A stretch of DNA of 63,105 nucleotides, filler included, from Collodictyon triciliatum (Eukaryota), in the NCBI GenBank assembly GCA_043381765.1. It is 7 parts of 7 records of this genome, joined end to end, with 100 filler letters (N's around TTAATTAATTAA, not from the genome) between each part and the next. Parts side by side here need not be neighbours in the genome. Positions count along the whole stretch, not along the records: positions 1 to 11,168 come from JBHJMP010002466.1; 6 more parts are not named here. The stretch is one strand, 5' to 3'. Within the stretch, counting starts at the first letter, position 1. Every line of letters starts with the position of its first letter. The notes under the pieces are model-generated. The model ran no database searches, was not told the origin of the DNA, and saw only the letters and a list, made by a program, of their open reading frames with translations. Below, in pieces: positions 1-50,540 of the stretch. The position numbers and the translations under genes were made by a program.

Positions 1-97
1 ATGTATGTATGTATGTATGTATGTATGTATGTATGTATGTATGTATGTATGTATGTATGTATGTATGTATGTATGTATGTATGTATGTATGTATGTA
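1..97. repeat. (ATGT)n microsatellite at contig start
   Basis: Perfect tetranucleotide array; source of the spurious MYVC ORF. Confidence 0.98.
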
Positions 98-205
98 TAA
101 AATGAATAGGAACAAAAACATAATTCGAGACGATTTGACTAGTATAAGCACAATCGTCGATCAGTTATATTATTATGATAATTGGATCTACACATAGGAA
201 TTCTC

Positions 206-3200
206 ATGGGAATTAAAAAAACAACATTTGTCTTCATCAGTGAGTTTTAAATTATCGATTAATTTCTCATCTATACATTTAATTAAAAAAGTTTTTTTAT
301 CTACCCAAATAGTCTCGCTTGTCGTGACCATCTATTTTGGTGGGGCGAGAGGAGACGATTTAGAAAGTACACTGATTATCAGTGGAGGCAGTGCAAGAAT
401 CTTGGGCGTCGCGGTCTCAAAAGATGGAACCAAGTTCGCCTCGGTTGGTGAAGACCAGACTGTCAAAGTCTGGAGTACTGCCCAAGGTTTACTTTTAAGC
501 TCCTTTTCTGGGCATTCAAAAAAAGTCTTTAGTGTTTGCTTCTCGCCAGATGGCTTTAAACTGATTTCAGGAAGCGAAGATGGGACCATTAAAACATGGG
601 ATTTAGTCACTTCAAAGTTTTTTGCCTCTATGACAGGCCACACTGGGGATGTTCTAACTGTCGCAGTGAGCCCTGATGGGACCAAAATTATATCAGGAGG
701 TTCTGATACAACTATCAAAGTATGGGATTTAGTCGACAGAATCTTCATCCGAACGTTAATTAGTCATACTTCCGCAGTGAACTCAGTGGCAGTTACACCA
801 AATGGGTTAAATATAGTTTCGGGAAGTTCTGATAACAAAGTCAAATTATGGAATATATCAGATGGAAAATTAATGATAACATATAATGGTCATTCTTCGA
901 AAGTGAATTCTGTTGTGATTACCCCAAATGGTCAGAATGTTATATCTGGGGGAGATGACTTGACGATAAGAATATGGGACCTGTTATCAGGAAATCAATT
1001 GAAGATAATCACGCAAACTGGGGCGATTAAGACGGTCTCAGTATCCTCAGATGGAGAAATGATTGCCTCTGGAGGTTCTACCAGATCCATTTCATATTGG
1101 AAATTTTCAGACGGGTCTTTTTTACAGAGACGGTCAGGACACACAGCGACAATTACATGTGTGACTTTTTTCCCCACCGGATATAGTTTGGTTTCTGGAT
1201 CTATGGACACAACCATTAAGGTCTGGGAATATAGCAGCAACACACCGGTGCTGAACGTCCTAAATCCTGTTGGCGGAGCTTCTTCAATAGCAGTTAGTTC
1301 TGATGGTTTGATTCTTATCTCTGGAGGGAGTGATCAAGTCGTAAAAATGTGGAATATATCTGATAATTCAATTTTGCGAACTTTCACTGGACACACAAAT
1401 ACTGTGAATTCTGTCTGCTTCAACTCAAACTCGTCTACAATAGTATCAGGAAGTGAAGATAGAACAATTAAAATCTGGAGCGTTTCGGATGAATCTTTAA
1501 GGATTACTTTGACAGGCCACTCTGGTGGTGTGAGAGCTGTAGCTGTTTCTCGAGATGGTTCATTTGTCGCGTCAGGAAGTTCTGACAATACCACAAAATT
1601 ATGGGATATGTCCAACGGAAAATTACTGCGAACATTTATGGGCCATGCATCTGGTGTAAATTCAGTCGCTTTAAATTTCGACTCTTCCAAAATAATATCA
1701 GGAAGTGATGACAATACCATAAAAATATGGAATACCAATGATGCGTCTTTGAATGTGACTATCCAGGCTCATGATAATGGGGTCAAAAGCGTTTCTATCT
1801 CATTAGATGAATCTATGATCGTTTCAGGAGGCGGGGACAAAGCCATCAGAATGTGGAAATACCCTGAAGGAGCCCTTATAGTCACACTTGGAGGCCATAA
1901 AGGTGTCGTTAATAGCATTCATATTTCGGGTGATGGGTCGAAGCTTATTTCTGGGAGCAGTGACGGAGCCATTAATTTATGGAGCACACAAAAAAAAAGG
2001 CTAATAAATACTTTGTCGGGGCATGGCCAAACAGTCAACAGTGTCTCATTTATTAATGGCACCAGTAAATTTGCAACTGGAAGCAGTGACTTTACCATAA
2101 AGATATGGAGATATCCTTCCTCGACCCTGATGATGACTATCCCTGGAGACAATTCAGGATTTACAAGCATCGCTATCGCACCAGAATTATATTATGTCGT
2201 TTCAGGAGATTACAGAGGTTATATAAGTGTATGGGATCTATCAAATGGTGAGCTAATTAGAACTATAAATGCACACAGGATTGATAATACTATTATTATT
2301 GCGAGGCATTTGACATTGACCAGAGATTCCAAAAAAATCATATCTGGCGGTTCTGACCAATTAATTAAGATTATAGACTTGGCAACTGGGAATATATTGC
2401 TCTCATTAAGAGGGCACACAAGTACAGTTCTTGTGACGGCAGTTACTCCAGATAGCGCTAAAGTTATTTCAGGGGGTCAAGATTCAACTATTAGAGTTTG
2501 GGATGCGATAAACGGAATTTTAATACATACCATCAGCGAAATGCCATTTTGGATTTACAGCATCTCAGTTACACCGATGGGAACAGAATTCATTACAGGG
2601 AGCGATGAAAGTATTTTGAAATTGTGGAACATATACGATGCGTCTTTAGTTAGGATTTTCACAGGCCAAAATGGAAAAGGTATGGCTACTGCAATAAGTC
2701 CATGTGGAGAATATGTTCTCTCTGGTAATAACCTAGGCTCAATCACCCTTTGGAATATAACATCTGCTGTAAAGCTGATGGAATTTTATGAACATATTTA
2801 CTCTGTGAGTAGTATTTCAATTACACATAATGGGACACGATTCATATCAGGCAGCATAGATCGATCAATTAAAACATGGGATTTTAAAAATAGTACTTCC
2901 ATTAAAACACTTACTGGACATTCAGGTGCAGTGAATAGTGTTTCATCAATTATTGGAGGAACTTTAATTGCCTCTGGAAGTGATGATAATACCATTAAAA
3001 TATGGGACGTTGGGATACTCTGCGAGATAGGATATTTTTACGACACGATGAAAAATTCGTGCAGCCGTTGTCCTCCTGGTAGATATGCAAACTCGAAAGA
3101 CCAATATAGCTGTTCTCTGTGCCCAAAAGGTACATATAATCCACAGAATACATCAATCAGCATAAATAGTTGCCTAGAATGTGATCCAGGATACTATAAT

Positions 3201-6200
3201 CCTGAAGAAGGGCAAGCGATTTGCATTAAGTGTAAGAGTGGAACATACAATAATCTTTTTGGACAGATACAATGTTTAGAATGCGATGAAGGATATTATA
3301 GCAATACTGGTGACCAATACTGTACAGGTTGTCCAGTTGGAACTAAAAATCCTAATAAAAAAGGAGCAACAATTACGTCATGCTCGAAGTGCTCAAAAGG
3401 TAGCTATAACAGTAGAATAGCAAGCGATAGTTGTCATGATTGTCCACGTGGATTTTACTCTGATTCAATGGGGAGTGAATTTTGCTCTTCCTGTCAGCAG
3501 GGTTCTTTTGCTAACAGAACAGGAATGTATTATTGCATATTATGTCCTATTGGGACCTATAGCGACAATATAGGGGCGAGTAATTTTACTGAATGTCTTG
3601 ATTGCCCAGAGGGCCAATTTTCATCAGAACCAGGAATGGCTTCTTGCTTAATGTGCACTCCTGGAAAATACAATGATGAGAAAAGAAGAATTTCCTGCAA
3701 AAAGTGTATGGACGGAACTTATAATCCTAATTATGGATCCAAAAACAGTTCTGATTGTATTAAATGTCCCAAAGGAACATACGGCATACCGTCTAACACG
3801 GATTGTAACTTCTGCCCAGCCGGTACTTACAACAATATGACAGGCTCTTCGAGCATAGCAGATTGTATTAAATGCTCAAACGGAAGCTTCAGCGCTGAAA
3901 GAAGCTCATCATGCATCGAGTGCTCACCTGGATTCTATCAAGAGGTAAATGCTACCAAAGACCAAGACTCATGCTACGCGTGTCCAAAAGGGACATACAA
4001 TCTTAACTCCGGCTCATACGGAAGCGAGTCGTGCGTAAGCTGTCCAGAAGGGACTTACAATGACAAGAATGGACAGCCTTCGTGTGTGTCATGTCCAGCC
4101 GGTACTTACAACAATATGACGCGCTCATCAAGCGTATTATCTTGCATCAAATGCTCAAACGGAAGCTTCAGCACCGAGAGCAGCTCATCATGCATCGAGT
4201 GCTCACCTGGATTCTATCAAGAGGTTAATGCTACCAAAGACCAAGACTCATGCTACGCGTGTCCAAAAGGGACATACAATCTTAAATCCGGCTCATACGG
4301 AAGCGAGTCGTGCGTAAGCTGTCCAGAAGGGACTTACAATGACAAGAATGGACAGCCTTCGTGTGTGTCATGTCCAGCCGGTACATACAACAATATGACA
4401 GACTCATCAAGCATATCAGATTGTATCAAGTGTGCTATTGGTAGTTATAGCTCAGAGAGGAGCCCACTTTGCAATAAATGCCCGAATCGCTCTACCACTA
4501 AGAATGAAACTTCTTTATCAATACATGACTGTATTTGTTTAGATACATACATACTTTTCAATGGTGAATGTACTTGTAAACCTGGAAATTTTGAAGACGA
4601 TGGCAGATGTGAGGATTGTGTCAAAGGTACTTACAAAAATACATATGACACAAACTTCTGTATATCATGTGGAGATAAATTTACTACAAAAAATTTTGGT
4701 TCGGTGAATTCATCTAGCTGCATCTGTAAGGATGGATTTGATTTTATAAATTCTACTTGCGAATGCAAACCAGGGTGGTTTGAAAAAGAAAAAAACTGTT
4801 ATGAATGTCCTGCAAATTACTTTAAAGAATTTTATAATCAAACTGCATGCTTGCAATGTCCTTACAATTCAATAACAAATTCTACCGGCTCAACATCAAT
4901 ACACAATTGCACGTGTAATGGAAACACATATCTAGACTTGAAGAGTAAAATATGCAAAGTATGTCCGAATGGATTCATTTGTGATGGAAGTAGCAATCTA
5001 GCTGTCTCCCCAGGATATTGGAAAGTGAGCGACCGAGATGGGGTCATCAAAGCTGAAAAATGTCTCAATGAACGTGCTTGCAAAGGAGGAAACAACACTT
5101 GTGCGCAGGGTTATACAGGAGTTTTGTGCGGTGTTTGTCAAATCGGGTATGGTGAAGTTGGCTCTATGTGTGTGGAATGCCCTAAAACTGGAGCCAGTGG
5201 ATTTCTTGTATTTTTGAGCATTATTATTCCGATGACTTTCGCAATGTTCATGATAGAACAGTCTCGAAAGCCTAAAACAGGGCACATTCAAATACTTAAG
5301 ACTCTCGCCACCCACTTCCAGATACTCTCTTACATCGCGAATTTCGATGTTAATTGGGACTACACCATGATTTCGATATTGAAGATTCCTGCCTCCTTTT
5401 CCTTTTCTTTGTCGACAGACAGTTATCATTACCAATGCCAGTTCCAGATATCTATTTACGAAAAGGTTTTGTTGTCTATGTTAACACCAGCAATCCTGGC
5501 AGGCCTTATTATTTTAATTGTCGCAGTGAAGACTGCTTGGAAATTGATTAGCGAAGAAAAAGCTTTCCATGAACTAAGATTTTCAGAGCTTCGACAAGAG
5601 TTCGTCTACTCCGTCTTGGTCATGTTATTTTTTGTGCATCCAACCATCACAGCAAACGCTGCATCTATATTCCGCTGCCATGAAATTGGAGGGGAGCGCT
5701 ACGTGATGGAAAACTTAGAGATTAGCTGTGAAGATCCGACTTACATAAGTTATCGAAATGCCACGTTTTGCTTCATTATCATTTATAGTTTGATAGCCCC
5801 TATGCTGTTGTTAGGGAGGATTGTGTACAAAAGAAACTCTCTAAAGTATCCCAATTCAAATACATATATATTGCTGAGGTTTTTAGTGGAGGGATATACG
5901 GAAAAATGTAACTTTTGGGAAGTTATTCTCATGATGCAAAAGCTTTTGATTGTAATCGTGAGTGTCTTTTTTTCATCTTCCCTCCAGATTTACTTTGGGC
6001 TGTGGATTATGTTTGTGATGATTGCATCCACCATCTACTTCAAACCGTTCATATCGAGTACGCTCAAGAACGCCCAATTACAGTCTTTGATAGTTCTTTA
6101 CTTCACTCTCATGCTCAGCCTTCTTTTCCGATACAGCGACATTGCCCCACTGACAAAAAATATCCTTATCTTTTTGGTGGGATTAATCAACGCGCTAGTT

Positions 6201-6398
6201 TGCGCCTGGTTTTTGTCCATAGCCGGACCAGAGTTTATACGAATGATATTATCCAAAGCCTTTTCTTTTCTTGGTGCAGTGAGGAGGAAGATTCTATGGA
6301 ACCCAGTCTCTAATCGCATCAGAATCCGCTTGTCCCGCATAATCGAAGACAGGGAGATGCAGGAGATATCCGGGCAAGTGCAAATGGTGACTCTCTAA
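206..6398 (+). CDS. Receptor-like membrane protein: signal peptide + 21 WD40 repeats + Cys-rich (GCC2/GCC3/ephrin-receptor-like) repeats + ~9-TM C-terminal domain; exons 206-239, 313-6398
   Basis: ATG at 206; intron 240-312 (GTGAGT...TAG) joins in frame to the long ORF, giving MGIKKTTFVFIISLVVTIYFGGARG (signal-like). 21 GH...WD-type repeats to ~3010; CxxCPxGTY repeats ~3020-5190; hydrophobic helices with FWE-x5-QK and KPF motifs ~5190-6280. Confidence 0.9.
3815..4400 (+). repeat. Near-identical intragenic tandem duplication, 279-nt (93-aa) unit
   Basis: ccagccggtac(t/a)tacaacaatatgac recurs at ~3815, ~4094 and ~4373; protein block CIECSPGFYQEVNATKDQDSCYACPKGTYNL...CVSCPAGTYNNMT occurs twice almost verbatim. 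Confidence 0.92.
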
Positions 6399-6532
6399 CC
6401 TGTGTGAGCAAGAAGGCCCTACTTTTGTGCGTGGCGCGGCAGATGTTGCAGCCATTGGAATAAACTCTGACCAACAACAAGCATAGTTGAATCAGCTAAT
6501 CATCTCCACCCCATAGGAGAAAAGAACAAACA

Positions 6533-6534
<2 letters not shown>

Positions 6535-6615
<81 letters not shown>

Positions 6616-6690
6616 AAACAAACAAACAAACAAACAAACAAACAAACAAACAAACAAACAAACAAACAAACAAACAAACAAACAAACAAA
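6535..6690. repeat. poly(A) (~80 nt) followed by (CAAA)n
   Basis: Direct read of sequence. Confidence 0.97.
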
Positions 6691-6744
6691 GAAAAAAAAA
6701 AACAGGCCAACGTCAGCGATCGGTGACTCTCGGTCTGTCCCAAG

Positions 6745-9080
6745 ATGAGCAGCCCGTCGGCTCTACGCCCTTCAAGTCGGAGCAGAGGATCTCAGCGGAG
6801 AAGTCAGACAATCGACACTGCAACACAACAAGTGCAGATGACAGAGGCGCTCGATCGGATCAACCACCTCGAAGAAGTCAACCGTAGCCTCCTGCGCCGA
6901 ATCCTCGAGATGCGTTTGCAACCCGACTCACACCAACCAAATCCCCAACTTTCGCTCTCCACGTTGCCTGCGTCGAATATTAGTGTTCCGTCTGCCTTTC
7001 TATCGCGATCATTTCTCCCTTCCGCAAACCAAACTATGGACGATAGACCAGAACGCGATCATACACCGTCGTTGCACATGGACATTGCACCCAGCCGTGT
7101 CCCTGAGGATGAAAGTCGAGCTTCAGCATCGCAGAACCAGATACTGCAGGAAAGTCTTCGCACACTGCAGCACAAATACGAGCTTGAGGTTGCTGCTCGT
7201 AAATCTTTGGAAGAGTTTCGAAACAGAGTCGCGTCGCAGAAGGACGTGTATGGATTGCGAGGATTTGGAGTGGAGAGCCCATCAGTACAATCACGCCTTT
7301 CATCTCGAGACAGTTATGGGCATTACAGAAGTACCGATGCAGACTCAAGAATCTGCTTTCTCGAGGCACAGTTACGGGAGGAAACTGAATTAAACCAGAG
7401 TTTAAAACGGGAGAATCAGCAGCTTAAGGCCGAAAACGGTAGACTTCAATCTGAAAATAGAATTTTGCTGACCGAAAAAGAACCGCATTCCTATAATACT
7501 TGGAGTTTTGAAGGAACTGGAGGCTCCCACATAGACCAACTTAACTCGAGAGTTGCTGCATCCTACCAATCAAATATCCAAAGTCAGCTTGGAATAGCAG
7601 CAAAGATAGAGGTTCGTTCTTTTTCTTTTTAATAATATTTTTCATAAAAATCTTATGAGTCTGGTACAAAACCCTTTTTCAAAACATGTTTGGTATCCCA
7701 TATGATCCGTAAAATGTAAATGCATCTCCAATAAAAAAAAAAAGGATGAAATATTGAAAATATATTTCATGATTTAGAGACTAGAGAAAGAAAATGAGCA
7801 CCTCAAAGTGAAATTAGAGGAAACAGAGTCATCTTTGGTTGAAGCATCATCCACAAGAGACTGCTTATCTGTCGAAATTCGTATACTTACATCAAGAATA
7901 TCTGAACAGAAGCAGGCCATAGAGGAGCTTAAACTATCAAACCAGGATTTTCAACGAACCCTACAAATAAATGAAATACAACACGTTCAAGAAGTGGCTT
8001 ACCTACAAAATATATGTCAGTCACTACAGGAGGATGTATATTCGCTTACGAAAAAATCCGATGACGACCTCCAAACTATAGAAGACCAGCTGATACAATT
8101 GAATGGTACCCAGCAAATGCGAACAGAATTGTCACACACAAGAAGAGATAAGAAGAAAATGGAAGAGGAATTGAATGTACTGAAAATTAGGTTGGAGGAA
8201 GAGGTCAAGCAACGTTCACTCCTCAAGGTTCGTTTGACAGAGTCTGATGCGAAATGCCAATCACAATCAAGTCACTTTGAGAAGGAGATTGAAAAATACC
8301 AACAGGAAATAGCCAAAGAGAGGGCCAAGCGAAATGTAATGGAACAAGCGAAAATGACAGCACAAAATCAGCAAATCGAAAGTATCTCATCCATGAAGAA
8401 AAGCCTGGATGAAAAGGTGCATGCAAATCATCAATTAATGGAAAAGTTAGATAATCTCCAGAACGAATTAGAAAAGGAGTCTAATAAGAATAAGGAATTG
8501 ACACAAATTATCGAAAAGTACAGAAAGGGTTACAGTTCTGAGATTGATGCCCTTGAGTCAAAAAACCAGTCCTTGCAAGATTCCATGTCATACTTTGAAG
8601 AAAGACACGAAGCAGATAACAGGGAATGCTCGCGTCTACAATCTGCGTTGGCATCTTGTGAGGGGAGACTACACATGATGCAATCTGAGAATGAATCTAG
8701 AATTAATGAGCTTTTGCAAAAGTTGAGTGAGTACGATGCATATGCAAATGATTTACAAGCACAAGAAGCAGGATTCATCGAGGAAATCGAGAGCCTCAAA
8801 TCTCGACTCATAGAGTTGGAAGACAGTCCTGTGTGGGCTGAAGAAAAGGATGAGCTATTGAAAGAAAATCAATCTGCCCTCGAGTGCATAACATTATTAA
8901 AAAATGAGGTAAGTTAATAATAATACATTTTCATTCAAATAATAGAACTTTGCAAAGACAGAATGTACTCTTTTTCTTTTTCTTTTTCTTTCTCTTTTTC
9001 TTTCTCTTTCTCTTTCTCTTTCTCTTTCTCTTTCTCTTTCTCTTTCTCTTTCTCTTTCTCTTTCTCTTTCTCTTTCTCTT

Positions 9081-22430: not shown

Positions 22431-22530
22431 NNNNNNNNNNNNNNNNNNNNNNNNNNNNNNNNNNNNNNNNNNNNTTAATTAATTAANNNNNNNNNNNNNN
22501 NNNNNNNNNNNNNNNNNNNNNNNNNNNNNN
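22431..22530. other. Artificial contig linker
   Basis: N44-TTAATTAATTAA-N44. Confidence 0.97.
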
Positions 22531-23238
22531 TTATCTGAACTCTGGTCACACAAGGTCTCTGTGCTGAATCCTGACTGGTCTCGTGTGAGGGAAATCGGGA
22601 GCGAGGGAAGTAATATTGGCCAACTCAAATACCCGAGAGGTGTTGCTATTCACCATGACGGGACAATAGTGATTGTAGACAATGACAATAATAGAATTTG
22701 CATCTACTCCCAAACTTATGAGCTGCTCCACACACTCGGGTCGTCCGGTATAGGCGATGGACAGTTTCAAGAGCCGTACAACGCTGTTTTCGACACAGAT
22801 GGCTTTTTTTATGTCACAGACCGAGACAACCACCGAATTCAAAAGTTTTTCAAGGATGGAACTTTTGTGCACTCGTGGGATGTTTTTTGTCCTGACTCTA
22901 GAGTGAAATGGAAACCTGAAGGCATCGCCCTGTCCACCGACCAAACGTTGTACATATCTTCGAGAAAACGTGGCTTGGTGCTTGTCTACTCGCGCACAGG
23001 AGAGTTCATCCGTAGAATCCCCGTGGAGGCATCAGGCGACCAGTACTGTGATATATGCCTTACTTCAGGGGACGGTTTCGCCATTAGTGACTGCGAGAAA
23101 AATATAGTTCGCTTTTATGATGCTCACGGCACTTTCCTGAACTCAATCAGCGTAAATTCTCCGGTTGGGATGGCGTTTGGATTCAACGACGAGTTCTATG
23201 TTATATCCAAAGATTCAAACGAAGTCGTCGTTTATTAG
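22531..23238 (+). CDS. NHL-repeat beta-propeller protein, 5'-truncated by contig end
   Basis: GSEGSNIGQLKYPRGVAI...VDNDNNRI; GSSGIGDGQFQEPYNAVFD...VTDRDNHRIQKF; WKPEGIA: typical NHL repeats. Confidence 0.88.
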   Translation, partial: LSELWSHKVSVLNPDWSRVREIGSEGSNIGQLKYPRGVAIHHDGTIVIVDNDNNRICIYSQTYELLHTLGSSGIGDGQFQEPYNAVFDTDGFFYVTDRDNHRIQKFFKDGTFVHSWDVFCPDSRVKWKPEGIALSTDQTLYISSRKRGLVLVYSRTGEFIRRIPVEASGDQYCDICLTSGDGFAISDCEKNIVRFYDAHGTFLNSISVNSPVGMAFGFNDEFYVISKDSNEVVVY

Positions 23239-27221: not shown

Positions 27222-30200
27222 TCACAACACATAGTAAGCAGCAGCGGATGTGTCTGGGATACCAGCAACCAGCCCATCAGTTGTCATGGAGAAGGCTTCT
27301 CCAAACGAGTTAGAAGAAGGGACAGTCGAGGGAGGATAGAATGTGTGAATGTAAGAGTATGTAAGCGTGTCATCGTATGATTCGTAAAGTTGGATGCGTC
27401 GAAATCTATCTGTTCCGTCCCACACTGCCATTCTGTTGGTCTGAGGAGGCGCAGAAATGTGTTTTCCGAAGGACTGGGACGGATTCGCCATTGAATCGTA
27501 AGACGTAATTGTTTGTTTCCAGATGACATCAGAGGACACTCGTATATCATATACAAAGACTGCTCCGGTGCTGTCCTTTGCCGACACAAACCCAGGGTCA
27601 GATATCAGCAGAGAATTGCGAACGAGGGCGAGACCAGCCCCGAGTGTCCTTGACTTACTGGGCTGCAGCAGAGTAATGTATCCTGTGATTCCAGTGTGGG
27701 AGTCAAACGAGAACAAATACACGGATGCCTGTGTATTGACATCGCTTGGGGAATCAGATACAGCTATGTACGCCATCGATAAAGCCACACTGACACCAAA
27801 CTTATCTCGGTCTCTGATATTGGGCGACTGAACAATCATGGGTGTCGAAGCAAAGCCCTCTTTTTTCCAGAGCCTTATACCTAAGTCGAAGAGATAAACA
27901 GCACCACCAGACACTCGATCAATCACTGCACCAGGAGCAGAGACGGCAGCCCAGTTGGAGAAAATCCCTATGGCATGGCCAAAGCCACCGTATACTGGGT
28001 CTGCTGTATCTTGCGTTGGTGGAAGTAGCATCGTAAGGATGTCCCACGACTCGCCAGACGGACTAACACGGATGGCATATACTGCTGCTGTTTTACCGCC
28101 ATTTGATATTATCGAATCGCAGCTGACAAGAAGGATATCATCGTCCAGAATCAATCGCTCGCCACATCGTGCATCTGCTGGGTTGGATGCGCCTAGGCCA
28201 GATACGGCTCCCACGGCTTTAATTCCGTCTTTGCCGATGCTCCACAGAGTGACCTGGCCGCCGTTTCGGTCCTGAGGTTCTCCAATGGCAATCTTTTCGC
28301 CGTGAATTCCAACAGAAGTTCCAAAGGCACTTGCACTGCCGCTGCTCGTGGGCGACTTGATGACAGACTCGTCTTTTTTATATGCAAAAATATAAATTTA
28401 TCAGTTAAATATTAAAATATTATGGGGAAAACTAGAATATGGTATACATGTTCCAATATGTCTCTAATTTCATGCATGAAAACGGGGCAAAAACGAGATG
28501 TAATCATTAATATTTACGGTTTATATCCACCATCTCCTCGCAGTATTGTCCTTCAAACCCGTCATTGCATTTGCAGGTGCCAAGCCCAGTCACTTGTCCG
28601 CGGTTGTTGCATATGGATGGTGAGCTGGTGTAGCTGCAATCGCTCCCCTAAAGTCGAATTAGTCATAGAAAAGGAAGAGGACATGCCATTCATTTACGAT
28701 TTGGTATCCATGTGTTCTGATGCCATAGCTTTTTAATGAAAAAACGTACGAAATATCGCGGAGCACAAACGCACTGGCCGTTACGGTCACAAGAACCACC
28801 ATTCTTACAATCCCCATTAACTGTGCAAGAAAGCCTGACAAAAGCCGGAAGGAATCCTAAAGCTTTTGCATTCTTACCAGCACACCCCGGCGCGCTGATA
28901 GGAGAGACACACTGATTTTCCATGAAGCATTTTCTTGTTTGGTCGTACTTCATTCCTACATTGTGCGTGGCATATATTCCCACAACTTTTCTTGATGATG
29001 TAGATAGGATTGCAGAGCCAGTGGCCTGGCCATAGATGGCCGAATCCTGTTCGGAATCATTTCAATAAACATAAATAGGTTCGTAGAGGAAAAAAATGTG
29101 ACATATGCTGCTCGTGTCATTGATGGAGTAAAGCGTAGGAATTACCGAAAAATAGAAGCTGGTGGAAGTGCGTCGATTCGCATTAGGATAGTAAACATAT
29201 CCCTTGGTTACATATTTTCGCGGTAAGCCACTTGGATGACCGATGATGGCGATGTTTTCTTGCGAAGGGAGCTATTCATTTGAAGAAAATAAGTGACTTT
29301 TCTTGAACACTGATTTTTTTTCATCAAGAAAAAACGAAAAAAAATACAACAGAGATAAGAATACTTTGATTATGAAATGTATTTTGAAGGCCTACTGTAA
29401 CAGACGAAATAGAAACAGGCGTGTAACCAACAACAGCTCGATCTAGCTCAACAATTGCATGGCCTTCGGGTGTTATTTGATGGCTGGCAACTCTATATAC
29501 CTGCGTTGGATGAAATTTGAGTACTTATGGGTAGTCTATTATCACAGGGGAAAATCTCGTTCAAATGAAAAGAATTTTATATCGTATGAATACGTCAGAA
29601 GTGCTGAATGTGATTTTGGGCCTATCTACTCCAACCATAACGAATCCAAATAATATTCGAAGGTCTGATATTTGAATTGAAGCGCTAACACTGCAAATTT
29701 GAATCGAGTTAGGGATCATATGAGAGCGGCCAATATTTCATTCATCTCAACAAACCAGCTTGCTGAAGTTGCGACTTGCGAGCTAGATACCAAGAATCCG
29801 GAGCAAATGCCCATAGCAGGCTTTTGTTGATTTGAGTGTGTAATTTTTTCATTAGAATTCTAGAAATAGTTGTAGAATATGGATTTTCAATATTCAGTTT
29901 CTTTTTTTTTTTATCATGATGGATAAAGATTCAACCACCAACCTCATTGGCAAATGAATCTTCAGTACAAACACTGTGAGAGGCAAATGTTTTCGAAATT
30001 CTCAAAGAGAAAGAAGCGTCTGAATTTTGTATCAACTAGGCCAAGTATTTTAATCACAATAACAAAAAAAAAATGTATGTTAATATTTGAACGGCAACAC
30101 TTCCCTACGTTGGATAGTATCTTTTGTTTAATCAAGTAAAATCCTCACATCATCCTTGTGAATGAACATAACTGTCGATGCACCTTGCTGCTTCCATTCA

Positions 30201-46445: not shown

Positions 46446-48226
46446 GCTTGATGGGTGTGGAATGAAACCCTGCTCTGTGGCGGACTCGGAAAGCTCGGTT
46501 CCCGCTTTGCTTGCTTGTCCGTTACGAGGCTACTTGACTTCTTTCGCATTTTCCCAGTGTCTTAGAGCAAGTACAATTCATACGTGCAATACACTTTGCA
46601 ACGAGTGTCCAGTTCTTTGGTCTCACGCTCATTAGTTGCGTTCATTTGTGTATACAGTTATAATGATATGCTTGATTTTATATTAGTATTGGTTTTTGTC
46701 GCAAGTGAGTGCTAAAATTATGGTATACAGATATTTTCCGCATTATAATATGTCAACAACCCATATTATAATCAAATATCAATTTATCAATAAGAATAGA
46801 TTTCTGGGTTTACACAAGTTGCCCTACAACCATGTTTCAGTCTTTGCGCTGGGTGCGTTATCCTAGGAAATGAGGTGTTAACCGATCCAGGATGATTGCT
46901 AGTTGAAAACTAAACCCAATGCCCCGCCTGGTGACCCACGTGGTCATCAGGCAATTTATGGAGGCCGTCATGGCTAATAAGAATCAGAGAAAATCGTAAT
47001 CGAGAGTCATCAGAGTGTGACATTAACGCCGCGATGCGTCCACAGCGCCCAATACTCCACGCACCATTCCACGATGCTGATAATCCTAATGTGGAATTCG
47101 TAGTGCTGGCGTCAACACCAAATTTGGTCAAGCGCGGCCCAATCTGGGCGACTCCCCCTTTCCTATAAGGAGAACACAGGGCGGAGCACACACCAGCTCA
47201 ACATTATTCCAAGTCCAGATTTGCCAGGAACCACCAAACATCAACAAATTCATGGCGGTTTTATTCCATTGCGCGTGCGAGTTTGCGAATTCGATAAAGA
47301 AAAAGAATAAAACTTCCTGAACGGTTTGTATTCCTTTGTTAATTTTTTTCCTTCATTGTATGTGGTTGCTTCACCAATTTTTCGGTGCGTTGTCCAAGAT
47401 AGGAAAAAAGAGAATGTCGTTTGTACCTATACCGCTTCTCTTTCATATTGCGCTGCAGACCACCAGACAAACAACCAAACAAACGATCGGCAAACAAACC
47501 AGCGTTATGGCGACAACCACCACAGCCATCTAATTTGTCCTGTGCCGAGGGTGTCCTCAAAGCCAAGAGCAGAATAGCGAAGCATTATAAACGGGGTGCG
47601 TAGCGGGCTGGTCTTCTGTCCAAGACATACGTGTCTCGTTTTCTCGCGCAATACTGCTGGCGCACGATTCAGCACAATGAAACACAACAAACACGGCAAA
47701 CGCTTTCTTGCACCCACATACATTTGTTCGAATATGAAGCAAAAATAGTGCCATACAATAAAACGGCATTATTTTCAAACGCGTTTTGCCGGCCTTTTTA
47801 GCCAATTTAATTCCCTTTTTGCTTCCCAAGCCCCTTATGTTTTTTTTTTTAATTTCTTTCTCTTTCCTCTATTTTCTTTCACATCCTCTTCAAATGTACA
47901 TATCCGCTGACTCAAACGAACACAAGACGAAGCAGATAAAACCAACACCAAAGGTTCAAACGGGATAAAACAAACGACAACAACAGCAAATATAAAGAAA
48001 ACGATGCGCTCATGTGTTGTTTATCTGCTGAGCAGCAGCACCACCGCCCAAACAGCACACAAACCCATCAAAAGAAACGTTTTGCGATCAAGACATCCAT
48101 CCATCAACCTATCCAACCATTTCTCCGCTCTTTTTCTCGCAAACAAGGGCAAAGGAGCAGACAGACAGACAGACAGACAGACAAGTAAGCACATCGACCA
48201 GTCGCCTCAGCCAGCCACTCCCCCTG

Positions 48227-50540
48227 ATGCTTGGTGCGCGAACACACAGCCACAGCCACAGCCACAACCACAGCCACAGTCACAACCACAACCACAGCCA
48301 CAGTCACAACCGCGCCGCCCCGATGACGCCACCCGGCCCACCGTTCCCTGTTTCTTTTCGTCCGCCCACCGAGGGCCACCGCGCAGCCCGGGAAGAACAG
48401 GGATCGTGGGTGTGTGCAGCGTGCTATTCTCCGAATCACCCGCGCAGAGACGTCTGTGCCCGCTGCTACCTGGCGCGCCCTCTTCCACCTGCCCAGGACG
48501 ACCCGGACGATTTCTCTGCGTACGTCGCATTTCTCATCACAAACCCAAAAAAAGAAAAGAAAAGAGGAAAAAAAAAAGACACTTGCAGAGAAATCGCACA
48601 ATTCGCCTCCCACTATCCAAAAAAACAAACAAACAAACAAACAAACAAACAAACAAACAAACAAACAAACAAACAAACAAACAAACAAACAAACAAACAA
48701 ACAAACAAACAAACAAACAAAAACGAACCACTACACCCGAAATCTCCTCTCGACCACGTCATCACCATCCCCACCCCGCCTCATCAACCCTCCCCCATCC
48801 AAACAGCAGCCACCACGCAAACCCATACGCACAAACGACCTTCGCGGAGGCCGATGCCGACTCTCTCGTCTCTGCCTTCCAGCACGGGCTTAACCTAACA
48901 GAGACTTTCTCGCCTGCATTCCACCCCGCGGCACATTCGCACCCACATTCCTATGCTCATCCACACCCACATTCCTATGCTCACTCGCACCCACATCCGC
49001 TCCCTCTCCCACACCCCATCCCTCTCCCTATTCCTAATCCAACCCCAAACCCCAATCCCAATCCACACACACATTTCCACCCAAACATCCCTGCAAACAC
49101 CGGCCTCAACTCCATCCCAAACGGGTATCCAAACGCGGCAAAGGCCGGCCCAAAGCCCGGCGTGGACGGAAACTGGACGTGTGTCGATCCTACGTGCCGG
49201 AACGTCAATTATCCGCGCAGAAAGTACTGCAACCGATGCGGCCGGCCTCGCACCGCCGACCAGGACGAAGTGGTTTGTCTCTTTCGTTTCGTTCATGCCA
49301 TAAGTGACTCTACCACGACCTGCGCCCGGCGTTGATGTGTTTTCATTTGTATCTCCATCAGATGACTAATTTTTTTTTGGTTTGTTAATGTTTAATTTTT
49401 CTTTTTGTCTTGTTATTGAGAGTGTGATATAATCGTATCTATCTCGACACTAGGCTGAGGCATACTTTCGCCGTGTCGCCGCACTTCGACAGGTAAATAT
49501 AGACTCATACCCGAATATCCCGTTTGCTTGTGGTGTGGGCTTTATGGTATCATCCAAATAACGACAAGAACCCTGATTGTGATAATGATCAGAAACTAAA
49601 TCATGTATTTTTTTCAACATATCATTGGAGAGATTCTGTGGCATTTTCCTCTCTAACTCCATGATTTGCTTGCGCTTCGGTAAATATGTAGCAGCAGCAA
49701 ATGGTACAACAGCAGCAGATGCAGCAGACACAAAGCATATGGAACAAGAAGCAAAACACTTCTCCAAGCTCAGGACCCTCCTTGTTTCAATCCATTTGGT
49801 CAGAACCTGTTGCTACCCATCCCCAAGAAAATGCATCGTCAGCTGCTTCTCCTTTCCTTACCACGAGTCCCTCCCCTTTTGCCTCTTTCTACACTCATGA
49901 AAGGGATGAAGTTTGGTTCGTAATTTTACACTCTCATGCATATACGAGCGAAAAATTGATTAGCCATATCCCTTTCCGTGGAACGACTGAATGACTAATG
50001 TTTATTGACAGCATACGCAATCATTTATTTTATGATTATTGAAGCTCTTACAACTTTGAACCACACCAGGAACCCACCCATCTCTTCAGACCGTCTATCC
50101 ATAGGCACTCTCTCCCAGCCAATTGGACCTTGTAAGAATAACTACTCGTTCGATTGCTCGATTGCTCCATTCATTGACTCATTAAACTACATATGTCTCA
50201 CCTTCACCCCTGGTGGACTTATGCTTGCTCCGCTCATAGTGAATCCTCGATTGAATAATGGAAATACACAGCCGGATGGACCAAAACCTGGAGTAGATGG
50301 GAACTGGTTATGTCCCGAATGCAGTAACGTGAACTTTCCAAGGTGGGTGTGGTGTCTGAGGCAAGCAACAAAAAAGAATCCTGATTGATTTAATCTTCAT
50401 AATATGCACGCACGAATACATTATTATTTATCTTGTTTTGCTCATTCGATTGCTCATATGCTTCTACAACCTATCAACCAACGCATATCTATCGTAGGCG
50501 CGTTGTGTGCAATCGATGCAGCAGACCAAGATACTTGTAA
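48227..50540 (+). CDS. Protein with three RanBP2-type zinc fingers (likely RNA-binding), ~7 exons
   Basis: GSWVCAACYSPNHPRRDVCARC; GPKPGVDGNWTCVDPTCRNVNYPRRKYCNRC; GPKPGVDGNWLCPECSNVNFPR|RVVCNRCSRPRYL*; GT-AG phases consistent. Start at 48227 or ~48322. Confidence 0.88.
48625..48722. repeat. (AAAC)n, intronic
   Basis: Direct read of sequence. Confidence 0.97.

Follow-up and report, generated by a model that had tools for sequence, protein, structure and literature searches.

The window analysed here is a stretch of 63,105 nucleotides (nt) of DNA from Collodictyon triciliatum (assembly GCA_043381765.1), which consists of seven parts joined end to end with filler between them. Its first part, from record JBHJMP010002466.1, carries a gene whose predicted product combines a signal-peptide-like N-terminus, a head of 21 WD40 repeats, a long cysteine-rich stalk, a short neck and a membrane base of nine predicted helices (table 1). 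The gene is real, and most of it lies in the open reading frame (ORF) at 198–6398, which is 2,066 codons long; the GC content of the window is 39%. The first in-frame Met of this ORF is residue 118, within WD repeat 3. An upstream ATG at position 206, preceded in its own frame by a TAA at 179–181, is off-frame to the long ORF and, if unspliced, runs into a stop codon at 248–250 after 14 codons; excision of the 73 nt between GTGAGT and the AG at 312 joins it to the 6.1-kb ORF and yields a coding sequence of 2,039 codons. ATG 206 is the only ATG able to reach the long ORF, the AG at 312 is the only one between 240 and approximately 330 that restores the frame (read by eye), and the putative intron has a GC content of 0.21 compared with 0.45 over the next 300 nt of exon. 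We infer from this sequence logic, which backs it well, that the splice takes place. In the predicted spliced N-terminus, a pair of Lys is followed by a hydrophobic core some 15 residues long, positions −3/−1 are Gly/Ala, and hydropathy peaks at residues 5–23, a pattern consistent with a signal peptide at residues 1–23; both the peptide and its cleavage site were judged by eye with a rule of thumb. A 19-residue hydropathy window (threshold 1.6 or more) detected zero hydrophobic segments between residues 23 and 1641. A sequence-only reading of this locus had proposed the hidden start, the signal-peptide-like N-terminus and the absence of transmembrane segments before the end of the stalk, and all three proposals agree with these results.

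Table 1. Features of the WD40-headed gene, with positions along the window
Feature	Positions	Strand	Basis
Exon 1: start and first 11 1/3 codons (charged n-region, onset of hydrophobic core)	206..239	+	Sole usable ATG; upstream TAA
Predicted intron, 73 nt, phase 1, GTGAGT...pyrimidine-rich (T-rich)...AG	240..312	+	Canonical ends; GC drop
Exon 2, including TAA stop (6396-6398)	313..6398	+	Unbroken ORF
Rest of signal-peptide-like segment (residues 12-23), then Arg-Gly-Asp-Asp as predicted mature start	313..347	+	Hydropathy; small residues at -3/-1
WD repeats 1-7, propeller 1	348..1229	+	Repeat register and 7bie overlay
WD repeats 8-14, propeller 2	1230..2111	+	Repeat register and 7bid overlay
WD repeats 15-21, unit 3	2112..3008	+	Seven repeats, modelled all-beta
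Ephrin_rec_like Cys-rich stalk (residues 915-1607 by Pfam)	3021..5057	+	PF07699
In-frame tandem duplication within stalk, 279-nt unit, 2.2 copies, 92% matches	3816..4429	+	Tandem Repeats Finder
DUF7630 neck (C..GY.G..C..C......C..CP), abutting helix 1	5058..5180	+	PF24633
Predicted nine-helix membrane module	5187..6251	+	AlphaFold2 model; family homology; charge bias
Basic C-terminal tail, about 48 amino acids (aa), 9 Lys/Arg, modelled as a helix	6252..6395	+	AlphaFold2; Pfam scan without named domain

The head matches the Pfam WD40 model PF00400 in 15 stretches (E value 6.7e-156, 500.7 bits against a cut-off of 27), and using the terminal Trp of each repeat as an anchor we counted exactly 21 units, as the sequence-only reading had stated. 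Eighteen of these are 42 aa long and the other three measure 41, 43 and 47 aa, the longest being repeat 16, which has lost its Trp. The units share the consensus GH and SGS.D.TIK.W, with a pairwise identity that averages 0.30 and ranges from 0.12 to 0.57. An AlphaFold2 model of residues 13–930, built from an alignment of 21 sequences, is all-beta with 83 strands, has a predicted local distance difference test score (pLDDT) of 82.5 and a predicted template modelling score (pTM) of 0.41, a normal value for a beads-on-a-string arrangement, and is split into three blocks by pLDDT dips at model residues 315–323 and 611–634. Block 1 (model residues 25–316) overlays the seven-bladed structure 7bie with a Z of 48.3 and a root-mean-square deviation of 1.1 Å over 285 of 286 residues, block 2 (model residues 332–624) overlays seven-bladed 7bid with a Z of 43.9 and a deviation of 1.4 Å over 286 aligned residues, and both blocks together overlay the double repetitive propeller 2ymu over 561 residues (40% identity, Z 48.3). 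In the model, propellers 1 and 2 are closed and seven-bladed. Unit 3 is also modelled as all-beta with pLDDT values mostly of 79–94, and a structural match of its own is absent among the best 50 overlays.

Searches with the head gave 5,231 matches at an E value of 1e-20 or less. Among the best 120 of these, the closest relatives that carry names are multi-WD40 proteins of bacteria and NACHT/HET-E-annotated proteins of fungi, at 23–41% identity, and none of the 120 contains the stalk or the membrane base. When metagenomes were scanned with residues 1–395, 244 stretches matched and 116 of them were relatives; the 80 that were retained are all generic WD40 genes (23–45% identical), and none of these 80 encodes the stalk or the base. 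Querying the ESM Atlas with the head–stalk junction returned plain WD40 clusters (scores up to 0.86) and none that combines WD40 with Ephrin_rec_like. The array of WD repeats starts at residue 24, and among the 25 of 51 Pfam families listed we found no NACHT/STAND or other effector domain ahead of it. The composition of the head was considered as a mark of its location. The sequence-only reading had noted many NxS/T sequons in the WD region, and although the motifs that it quoted are present, the head contains 9 sequons where 11.4 ± 2.9 are expected from composition, and 84% of 2,000 shuffles reach 9; with a count at or below chance, sequons were rejected as a mark of outside location. Cys depletion was rejected as well, because the Cys fraction of the head (0.0056 against a median of 0.0042 in the 120 relatives) is ordinary among them.

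The composition changes abruptly behind the head, with 83 Cys in residues 911–1640 compared with 4 in residues 1–910. The stalk matches the Ephrin_rec_like model in 16 stretches (E value 5.3e-82), and it contains 19 sequons where 11.8 ± 2.9 are expected, a count reached by 1.4% of shuffles, although this excess is partly inflated by the tandem duplication. Because the 279-nt unit is repeated in tandem at 92% identity, the stalk appears to have been lengthened recently. The neck that follows matches DUF7630 just above the cut-off (E value 2e-06, 28.3 bits against 27); a sequence-profile search of the PDB gave 6 marginal matches, of the neck to EphA2 (E values 0.12–0.71), and the term 'DUF7630' occurs in none of the papers that were searched.

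To our knowledge, the nine-helix chassis at the C-terminus has neither a solved structure nor an established mechanism, and the protist family to which it belongs is unstudied and unnamed. An exhaustive HMMER search of cluster representatives with the last 432 residues as query recovered 3,969 relatives at an E value of 0.001 or less, 992 at 1e-10 or less and 27 at 1e-30 or less. In the matches listed, the module lies nearly always at the C-terminus of proteins of 290–6,600 residues, and the alignments mostly cover query residues 1 to about 370. Six of the 10 top matches that were looked up are transcripts of Rigifila ramosa (EukProt EP00004: P0004, P0005, P0007, P0009, P0010, and P0011), whose modules are homologous over their full length (E values 1.6e-50 to 5.4e-37, 30–32% identity). 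The heads are changeable: among 17 members scanned with Pfam we found TIG domains in 9, RCC1 propellers in 4, and FG-GAP, leucine-rich repeats and Filamin in 2 each, together with Ephrin_rec_like in 5 and DUF7630 in 1. The RCC1-headed members are P0005, P0009, P0011, and P0020, the three of them that were looked up being from R. ramosa, and P0009 has a clear N-terminal signal-like segment ahead of its propeller. One further member, P0002, has a weak, degenerate WD40-like stretch (31.6 bits). Regular WD repeats were found in 0 of 151 other family members using phmmer and a hidden Markov model of the 21 repeats of the window, a model that recovered 120 of 120 positive controls. Judged by these searches, a regular WD40 head is unique, among the sequences examined, to the C. 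triciliatum genome.

An alignment of 27 short sequences of the family, including that of the window, has five invariant columns in the module (C193, C210, G265, W273, and P316) and six near-invariant ones, and the FWE...K and KPF motifs map to W273, K281, and P316 among them. DUF7630 is present in 10 of the 27 and the TRP-like model PF06011 is matched by 5 (best E value 5.7e-08); the module of P0016 scores 28.5 bits, which is exactly the PF06011 cut-off (28.5). Of 115 long members with an initial Met, 49 have a strongly hydrophobic stretch at the N-terminus according to a crude hydropathy test. A word-indexed profile search for longer members gave 14 matches, few of which are named, one being a 'transmembrane protein' of Paramecium. 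The proposal that the Cys-rich stalk and the multi-pass module with these motifs belong to a poorly characterised protist family is thereby borne out by the domain matches, the conserved columns and the many relatives with changing heads. The window protein shares with Rigifila and the other protists the full-length module, the neck, the Trp, Lys, Pro and Cys columns and the C-terminal placement, and differs in its head, which is regular WD40 where theirs are RCC1, TIG, leucine-rich repeats, FG-GAP or Filamin.

Using the same 27-sequence alignment, AlphaFold2 models the base as nine long helices and a beta-hairpin loop (pLDDT 88, pTM 0.83). The ninth helix, residues 1668–1687, is amphipathic with a mean hydropathy of 0.73 and was called from the model and from charge bias. 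With nine helices and the N-terminus outside, 19 Lys and Arg lie on inner loops and the tail compared with 4 on outer loops, and the conserved Cys 1720, 1800, and 1817 are all placed on outer loops; because both the charge bias and the loop cysteines would conflict under eight helices, we prefer nine helices, N-out and C-in. This arrangement, with a non-cytosolic head as the sequence-only reading had suggested, is the best-fitting prediction from hydropathy, model and charge, and since there is no membrane segment before residue 1641 the propellers would lie on the same side of the membrane as the stalk. Prediction of two copies of the base gave a score of 0.35 (0.37, 0.35, and 0.35 in individual runs), whereas the best of three controls scored 0.00. 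The runs have at least 86% of contacts in common, the pLDDT of the partner is at least 71, and the predicted symmetric interface is formed by module residues 292–312 and 331–346, that is, helices 7 and 8. The mark applied in this test was reached by 21 of 30 solved same-chain pairs and by 0 of 23 solved single chains; among eukaryotic proteins it was reached by 17 of 29 pairs, but by just 1 of the 7 for which no relative had been solved earlier; none of 30 single chains reached it. The prediction supports a dimeric base.

Short RNA contigs from three lake/freshwater metatranscriptome studies match the gene with 0–3 differences at 656–861, 1869–2020, 2963–3112, 3249–3399, 5284–5556, 5515–5760, and 5650–5886, with 0–1 differences for the contigs at 656–861, 1869–2020, 5284–5556, 5515–5760, and 5650–5886. 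The contig at 2963–3112 (3 differences) crosses from the final WD repeat, whose end is at 3008, into the stalk, whose first Cys is at 3021. Several other contigs match for about 33 nt (at 1698–1733, 2975–3007, and 3882–3915) and then continue into unlike flanks that are still WD- or Cys-repeat-like; judged by these flanks, they probably represent transcripts from paralogous genes or from related species. The whole window contains 1,137 N, hence at least one assembly gap, and none was seen in 1–6800.

The elements of this protein can be compared with four known systems. Members of PF06011, which we take to include Schizosaccharomyces pombe Pkd2 and yeast Flc1-3, differ from the window protein in having small heads and no Cys stalk, and Ca2+ permeation is shown for Pkd2 only. 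Fission-yeast Pkd2 is reported to have an extracellular N-terminal domain, a multi-helix module and a cytosolic tail in an N-out/C-in arrangement, like that predicted here, and when reconstituted it passes Ca2+ upon membrane stretch (PMC9727806). The WD arrays of STAND/NACHT proteins (HET-E/NWD) and 2ymu, the solved structure closest to the head, share the 42-aa period, and the best relatives of the head are of such type; in contrast to them, the window array directly follows a signal-peptide-like segment with no NACHT or N-terminal domain. HET-E-type sensors of Podospora have near-identical repeats with few hypervariable positions, whereas the repeats of the window are about 30% and at most 57% alike. 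The link drawn by the sequence-only reading between the head and cytosolic-type WD40 sensors of NACHT-WD/HET-E proteins is supported by the best relatives of the head but not by the similarity of the repeats. Regular GH-WD propellers are textbook intracellular scaffolds, and the RCC1 propeller fold, too, is best known from the cell interior. The propeller of the plant receptor kinase CRINKLY4 is RCC1-like in sequence, and its membrane part, a single helix plus a kinase, has no homology to the base described here. In CRINKLY4/ACR4, an extracellular seven-bladed propeller is reported to be followed by a Cys-rich domain (bioRxiv 10.1101/2020.08.10.245050). Our literature searches on 'extracellular WD40' returned CRINKLY4 among their results and no canonical WD40 receptor, and broader searches gave no account of such a design.

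The likeness to the CRMPs of Apicomplexa and Tetrahymena is one of layout as described in papers rather than of compared sequences, and comprises a signal peptide, ephrin-like/EGF-like Cys modules, nine transmembrane helices and an outside N-terminus, with the signal peptide, the ninth helix and the outside N-terminus of the window protein being predictions. CRMPs are reported to have ephrin-receptor-like modules and nine transmembrane helices whose membrane parts are predicted to pair (PMC9815656), which parallels the homodimer test passed by the base of the window protein; TgCRMPa has its N-terminus outside and its C-terminus in the cytosol (PMC9670195), and five transmembrane helices are predicted for the Tetrahymena CRMPs (PMC9670195 and PMC9815656). 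CRMPs differ in having Kringle, MAR, lectin or similar heads, in forming A/B heterodimers and in acting with MIC15/TSP1.

We consider it moderately probable that the gene encodes an expressed, ligand-responsive, type-I-like multi-pass receptor that belongs to the protist family with a variable head, Ephrin_rec_like stalk, DUF7630 neck and nine-helix base, and that displays its propellers outward. A cell-surface location is part of this proposal; the propellers would face outward because they lie on the same side as the stalk, and all studied Ephrin_rec_like stalks and all other heads of the family are of the outside type. Under this proposal, the signal peptide would be cleaved and three seven-bladed WD40 propellers would crown a stiff and disulfide-rich, probably glycosylated stalk, with head and stalk non-cytosolic and the base ending in a short, basic cytosolic tail. 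The ligand of the propeller faces might be a protein or a particle, for instance prey or a second cell, and two bases might pair via helices 7 and 8. Ligand binding, or the resulting pull on the stalk, could then be relayed to the base, which by analogy with Pkd2 may admit Ca2+ or, by analogy with the CRMPs of Toxoplasma and Tetrahymena, may set off regulated secretion. Recognition of prey or non-self and channel activity are conjectures.

Several results weigh against this receptor model. Plain hydropathy detects just eight helices in the base, a count that would place both termini on the same side of the membrane. The composition of the head, in sequons and in Cys, provides zero independent sign of non-cytosolic life. 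A Foldseek search of the PDB with the base model gave 0 matches at an E value of 0.001 or less; G-protein-coupled receptors appear among the rows with TM-scores of 0.22 or less and E values of 0.17 or more, set against a base model with nine long helices. VIA-align, run against 48,161 chains, gave a best Z of 7.2 (HRD1), which is in the noise range for helical bundles, and TRP structures are absent among the rows listed. The module of the window itself has no match to PF06011 even at an E value of 10 or less. The resemblance to Flc/Pkd2 TRP-like domains put forward by the sequence-only reading holds for some family members; going by the profile matches, the link is real for the family and only transitive for the window protein. 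The pass in the dimer test is model confidence rather than a measurement. The gene is likely transcribed, but RNA libraries can carry DNA, and none of the RNA contigs from the three metatranscriptome runs covers 120–541, which leaves the intron at 240–312 uncovered.

Since the lumen of internal compartments is topologically equivalent to the outside, all evidence on topology fits equally well with a protein of the same architecture that resides in an internal membrane (endoplasmic reticulum [ER], Golgi, secretory vesicle or extrusome), where a lumenal head would serve ion or cargo handling. Yeast Flc proteins reside in the ER. Pkd2 is reported from the ER as well as from the plasma membrane (PMC11333956), and CRMPs are reported to be mostly internal and at the surface just briefly (PMC9815656). 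We regard an internal location as unlikely, though it deserves some weight: a stalk of about 700 residues with its 19 sequons, together with a big binding head, is typical of displayed surface proteins, and CRMPs are reported to do their work at the surface upon contact (PMC9670195). Improbable, in our view, is a passive adhesin or cell-coat protein whose head and stalk bind surfaces or prey while the nine-helix base is a mere anchor. The short cytosolic tail, with no domain named by Pfam, and a base in which neither Foldseek nor VIA-align recognised a channel or receptor fold would suit such a role, but the base is far better conserved than the heads, with its invariant and near-invariant columns and thousands of relatives, which an anchor would not need, and distant relatives have transport or trigger roles (PMC9727806 and PMC9670195).

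A quite different topology would result if the intron were retained or the N-terminus were no signal, so that translation started at an internal Met, helix 1 (residue 1641) set the topology and the head lay in the cytosol. A splice predicted from sequence, the unenriched sequons of the head and the fact that regular WD40 repeats are otherwise known from intracellular proteins, as the names of the relatives show, are in keeping with this view; nevertheless, it is very improbable, because it would also put the 83-Cys Ephrin_rec_like stalk into the cytosol, unlike any studied member, and the first in-frame Met would truncate propeller 1. Charge bias and conserved loop Cys suit an outside N-terminus, and relatives with clear signal peptides, such as P0009, bear N-terminal propellers. 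Scarcely credible is the possibility that WD40 and receptor parts were misjoined during assembly, or that the locus is a dead copy or silent retrocopy. A genomic A-run begins about 120 nt past the stop, 6.1 kb of the gene are free of introns, and a stalk with 92%-identical tandem repeats could mislead an assembler. Because the environmental contig at 2963–3112 independently bridges the junction, however, the fusion of WD40 head and stalk is no assembly artefact; other contigs match at 0–1 differences, and an open frame of 2,066 codons at 39% GC is not retained by chance.

A broader version of the receptor model, which we consider rather improbable, is that the WD40-headed copies belong to a small family of genes that acts as an outward recognition repertoire, with top faces that diversify among paralogues to recognise prey or non-self, that a bound ligand opens or pulls on the dimeric base to give a Ca2+ signal or extrusome discharge, and that the CRMP/Pkd2-like superfamily consists of contact-gated receptor-channels. 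If true, such a repertoire would correspond, at the cell surface, to the WD40 sensors that fungal and bacterial NLR-like proteins have inside the cell. The known counterparts of the chassis are the CRMPs, fungal Flc/Pkd2 at a distance, and numerous protist proteins without a name. By the sequence comparisons above, a regular GH-WD triple propeller appears to be new among the known heads of the nine-helix chassis, and a displayed triple WD40 head, if true, would widen the known uses of the propeller fold. It would also mean that 'inside-type' propellers are freely accepted as heads of this chassis; because RCC1 heads occur in Rigifila, such propellers would have been recruited more than once. 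The chassis is widespread and shares its layout with the CRMPs by which Toxoplasma and Plasmodium trigger host invasion. A free-living, culturable relative with a simple and well-understood head is a possible tractable model for the conversion of contact into response.

Other features of the window were recorded. A perfect (ATGT) microsatellite of 24.5 copies occupies 1–98, about 100 nt 5' of the start codon. Downstream of the gene there is an AATAAA at 6459 and an A-rich run at 6520–6702 (Tandem Repeats Finder period 1, 73% matches) that starts about 120 nt past the stop and ends in (CAAA)n; this run could be a plain microsatellite or the old retrocopy tail of a nearly intron-free gene. A Pfam scan of 15 other ORFs in the window revealed none relevant to the WD40-headed gene. 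Among these open frames, 27222–28397 on the minus strand matches FG-GAP_2 (E value 5.1e-10) and 22483–23238 on the plus strand matches NHL (E value 9.9e-18), and both could be exons that encode parts of additional surface proteins, which might be heads of this receptor family. In the open frame at 47911–49335 (plus strand), a RanBP2-type zinc finger scores less than the Pfam cut-off (E value 4e-05, 23.2 bits against 27). Finally, a candidate short intron on the plus strand at 8909–8945/8961 (37–53 nt, GTAAGT...AG, GC 0.16–0.23) links two long open frames (7778–8917 and onward), a hint that introns of the C. triciliatum genome are usually very short and AT-rich.

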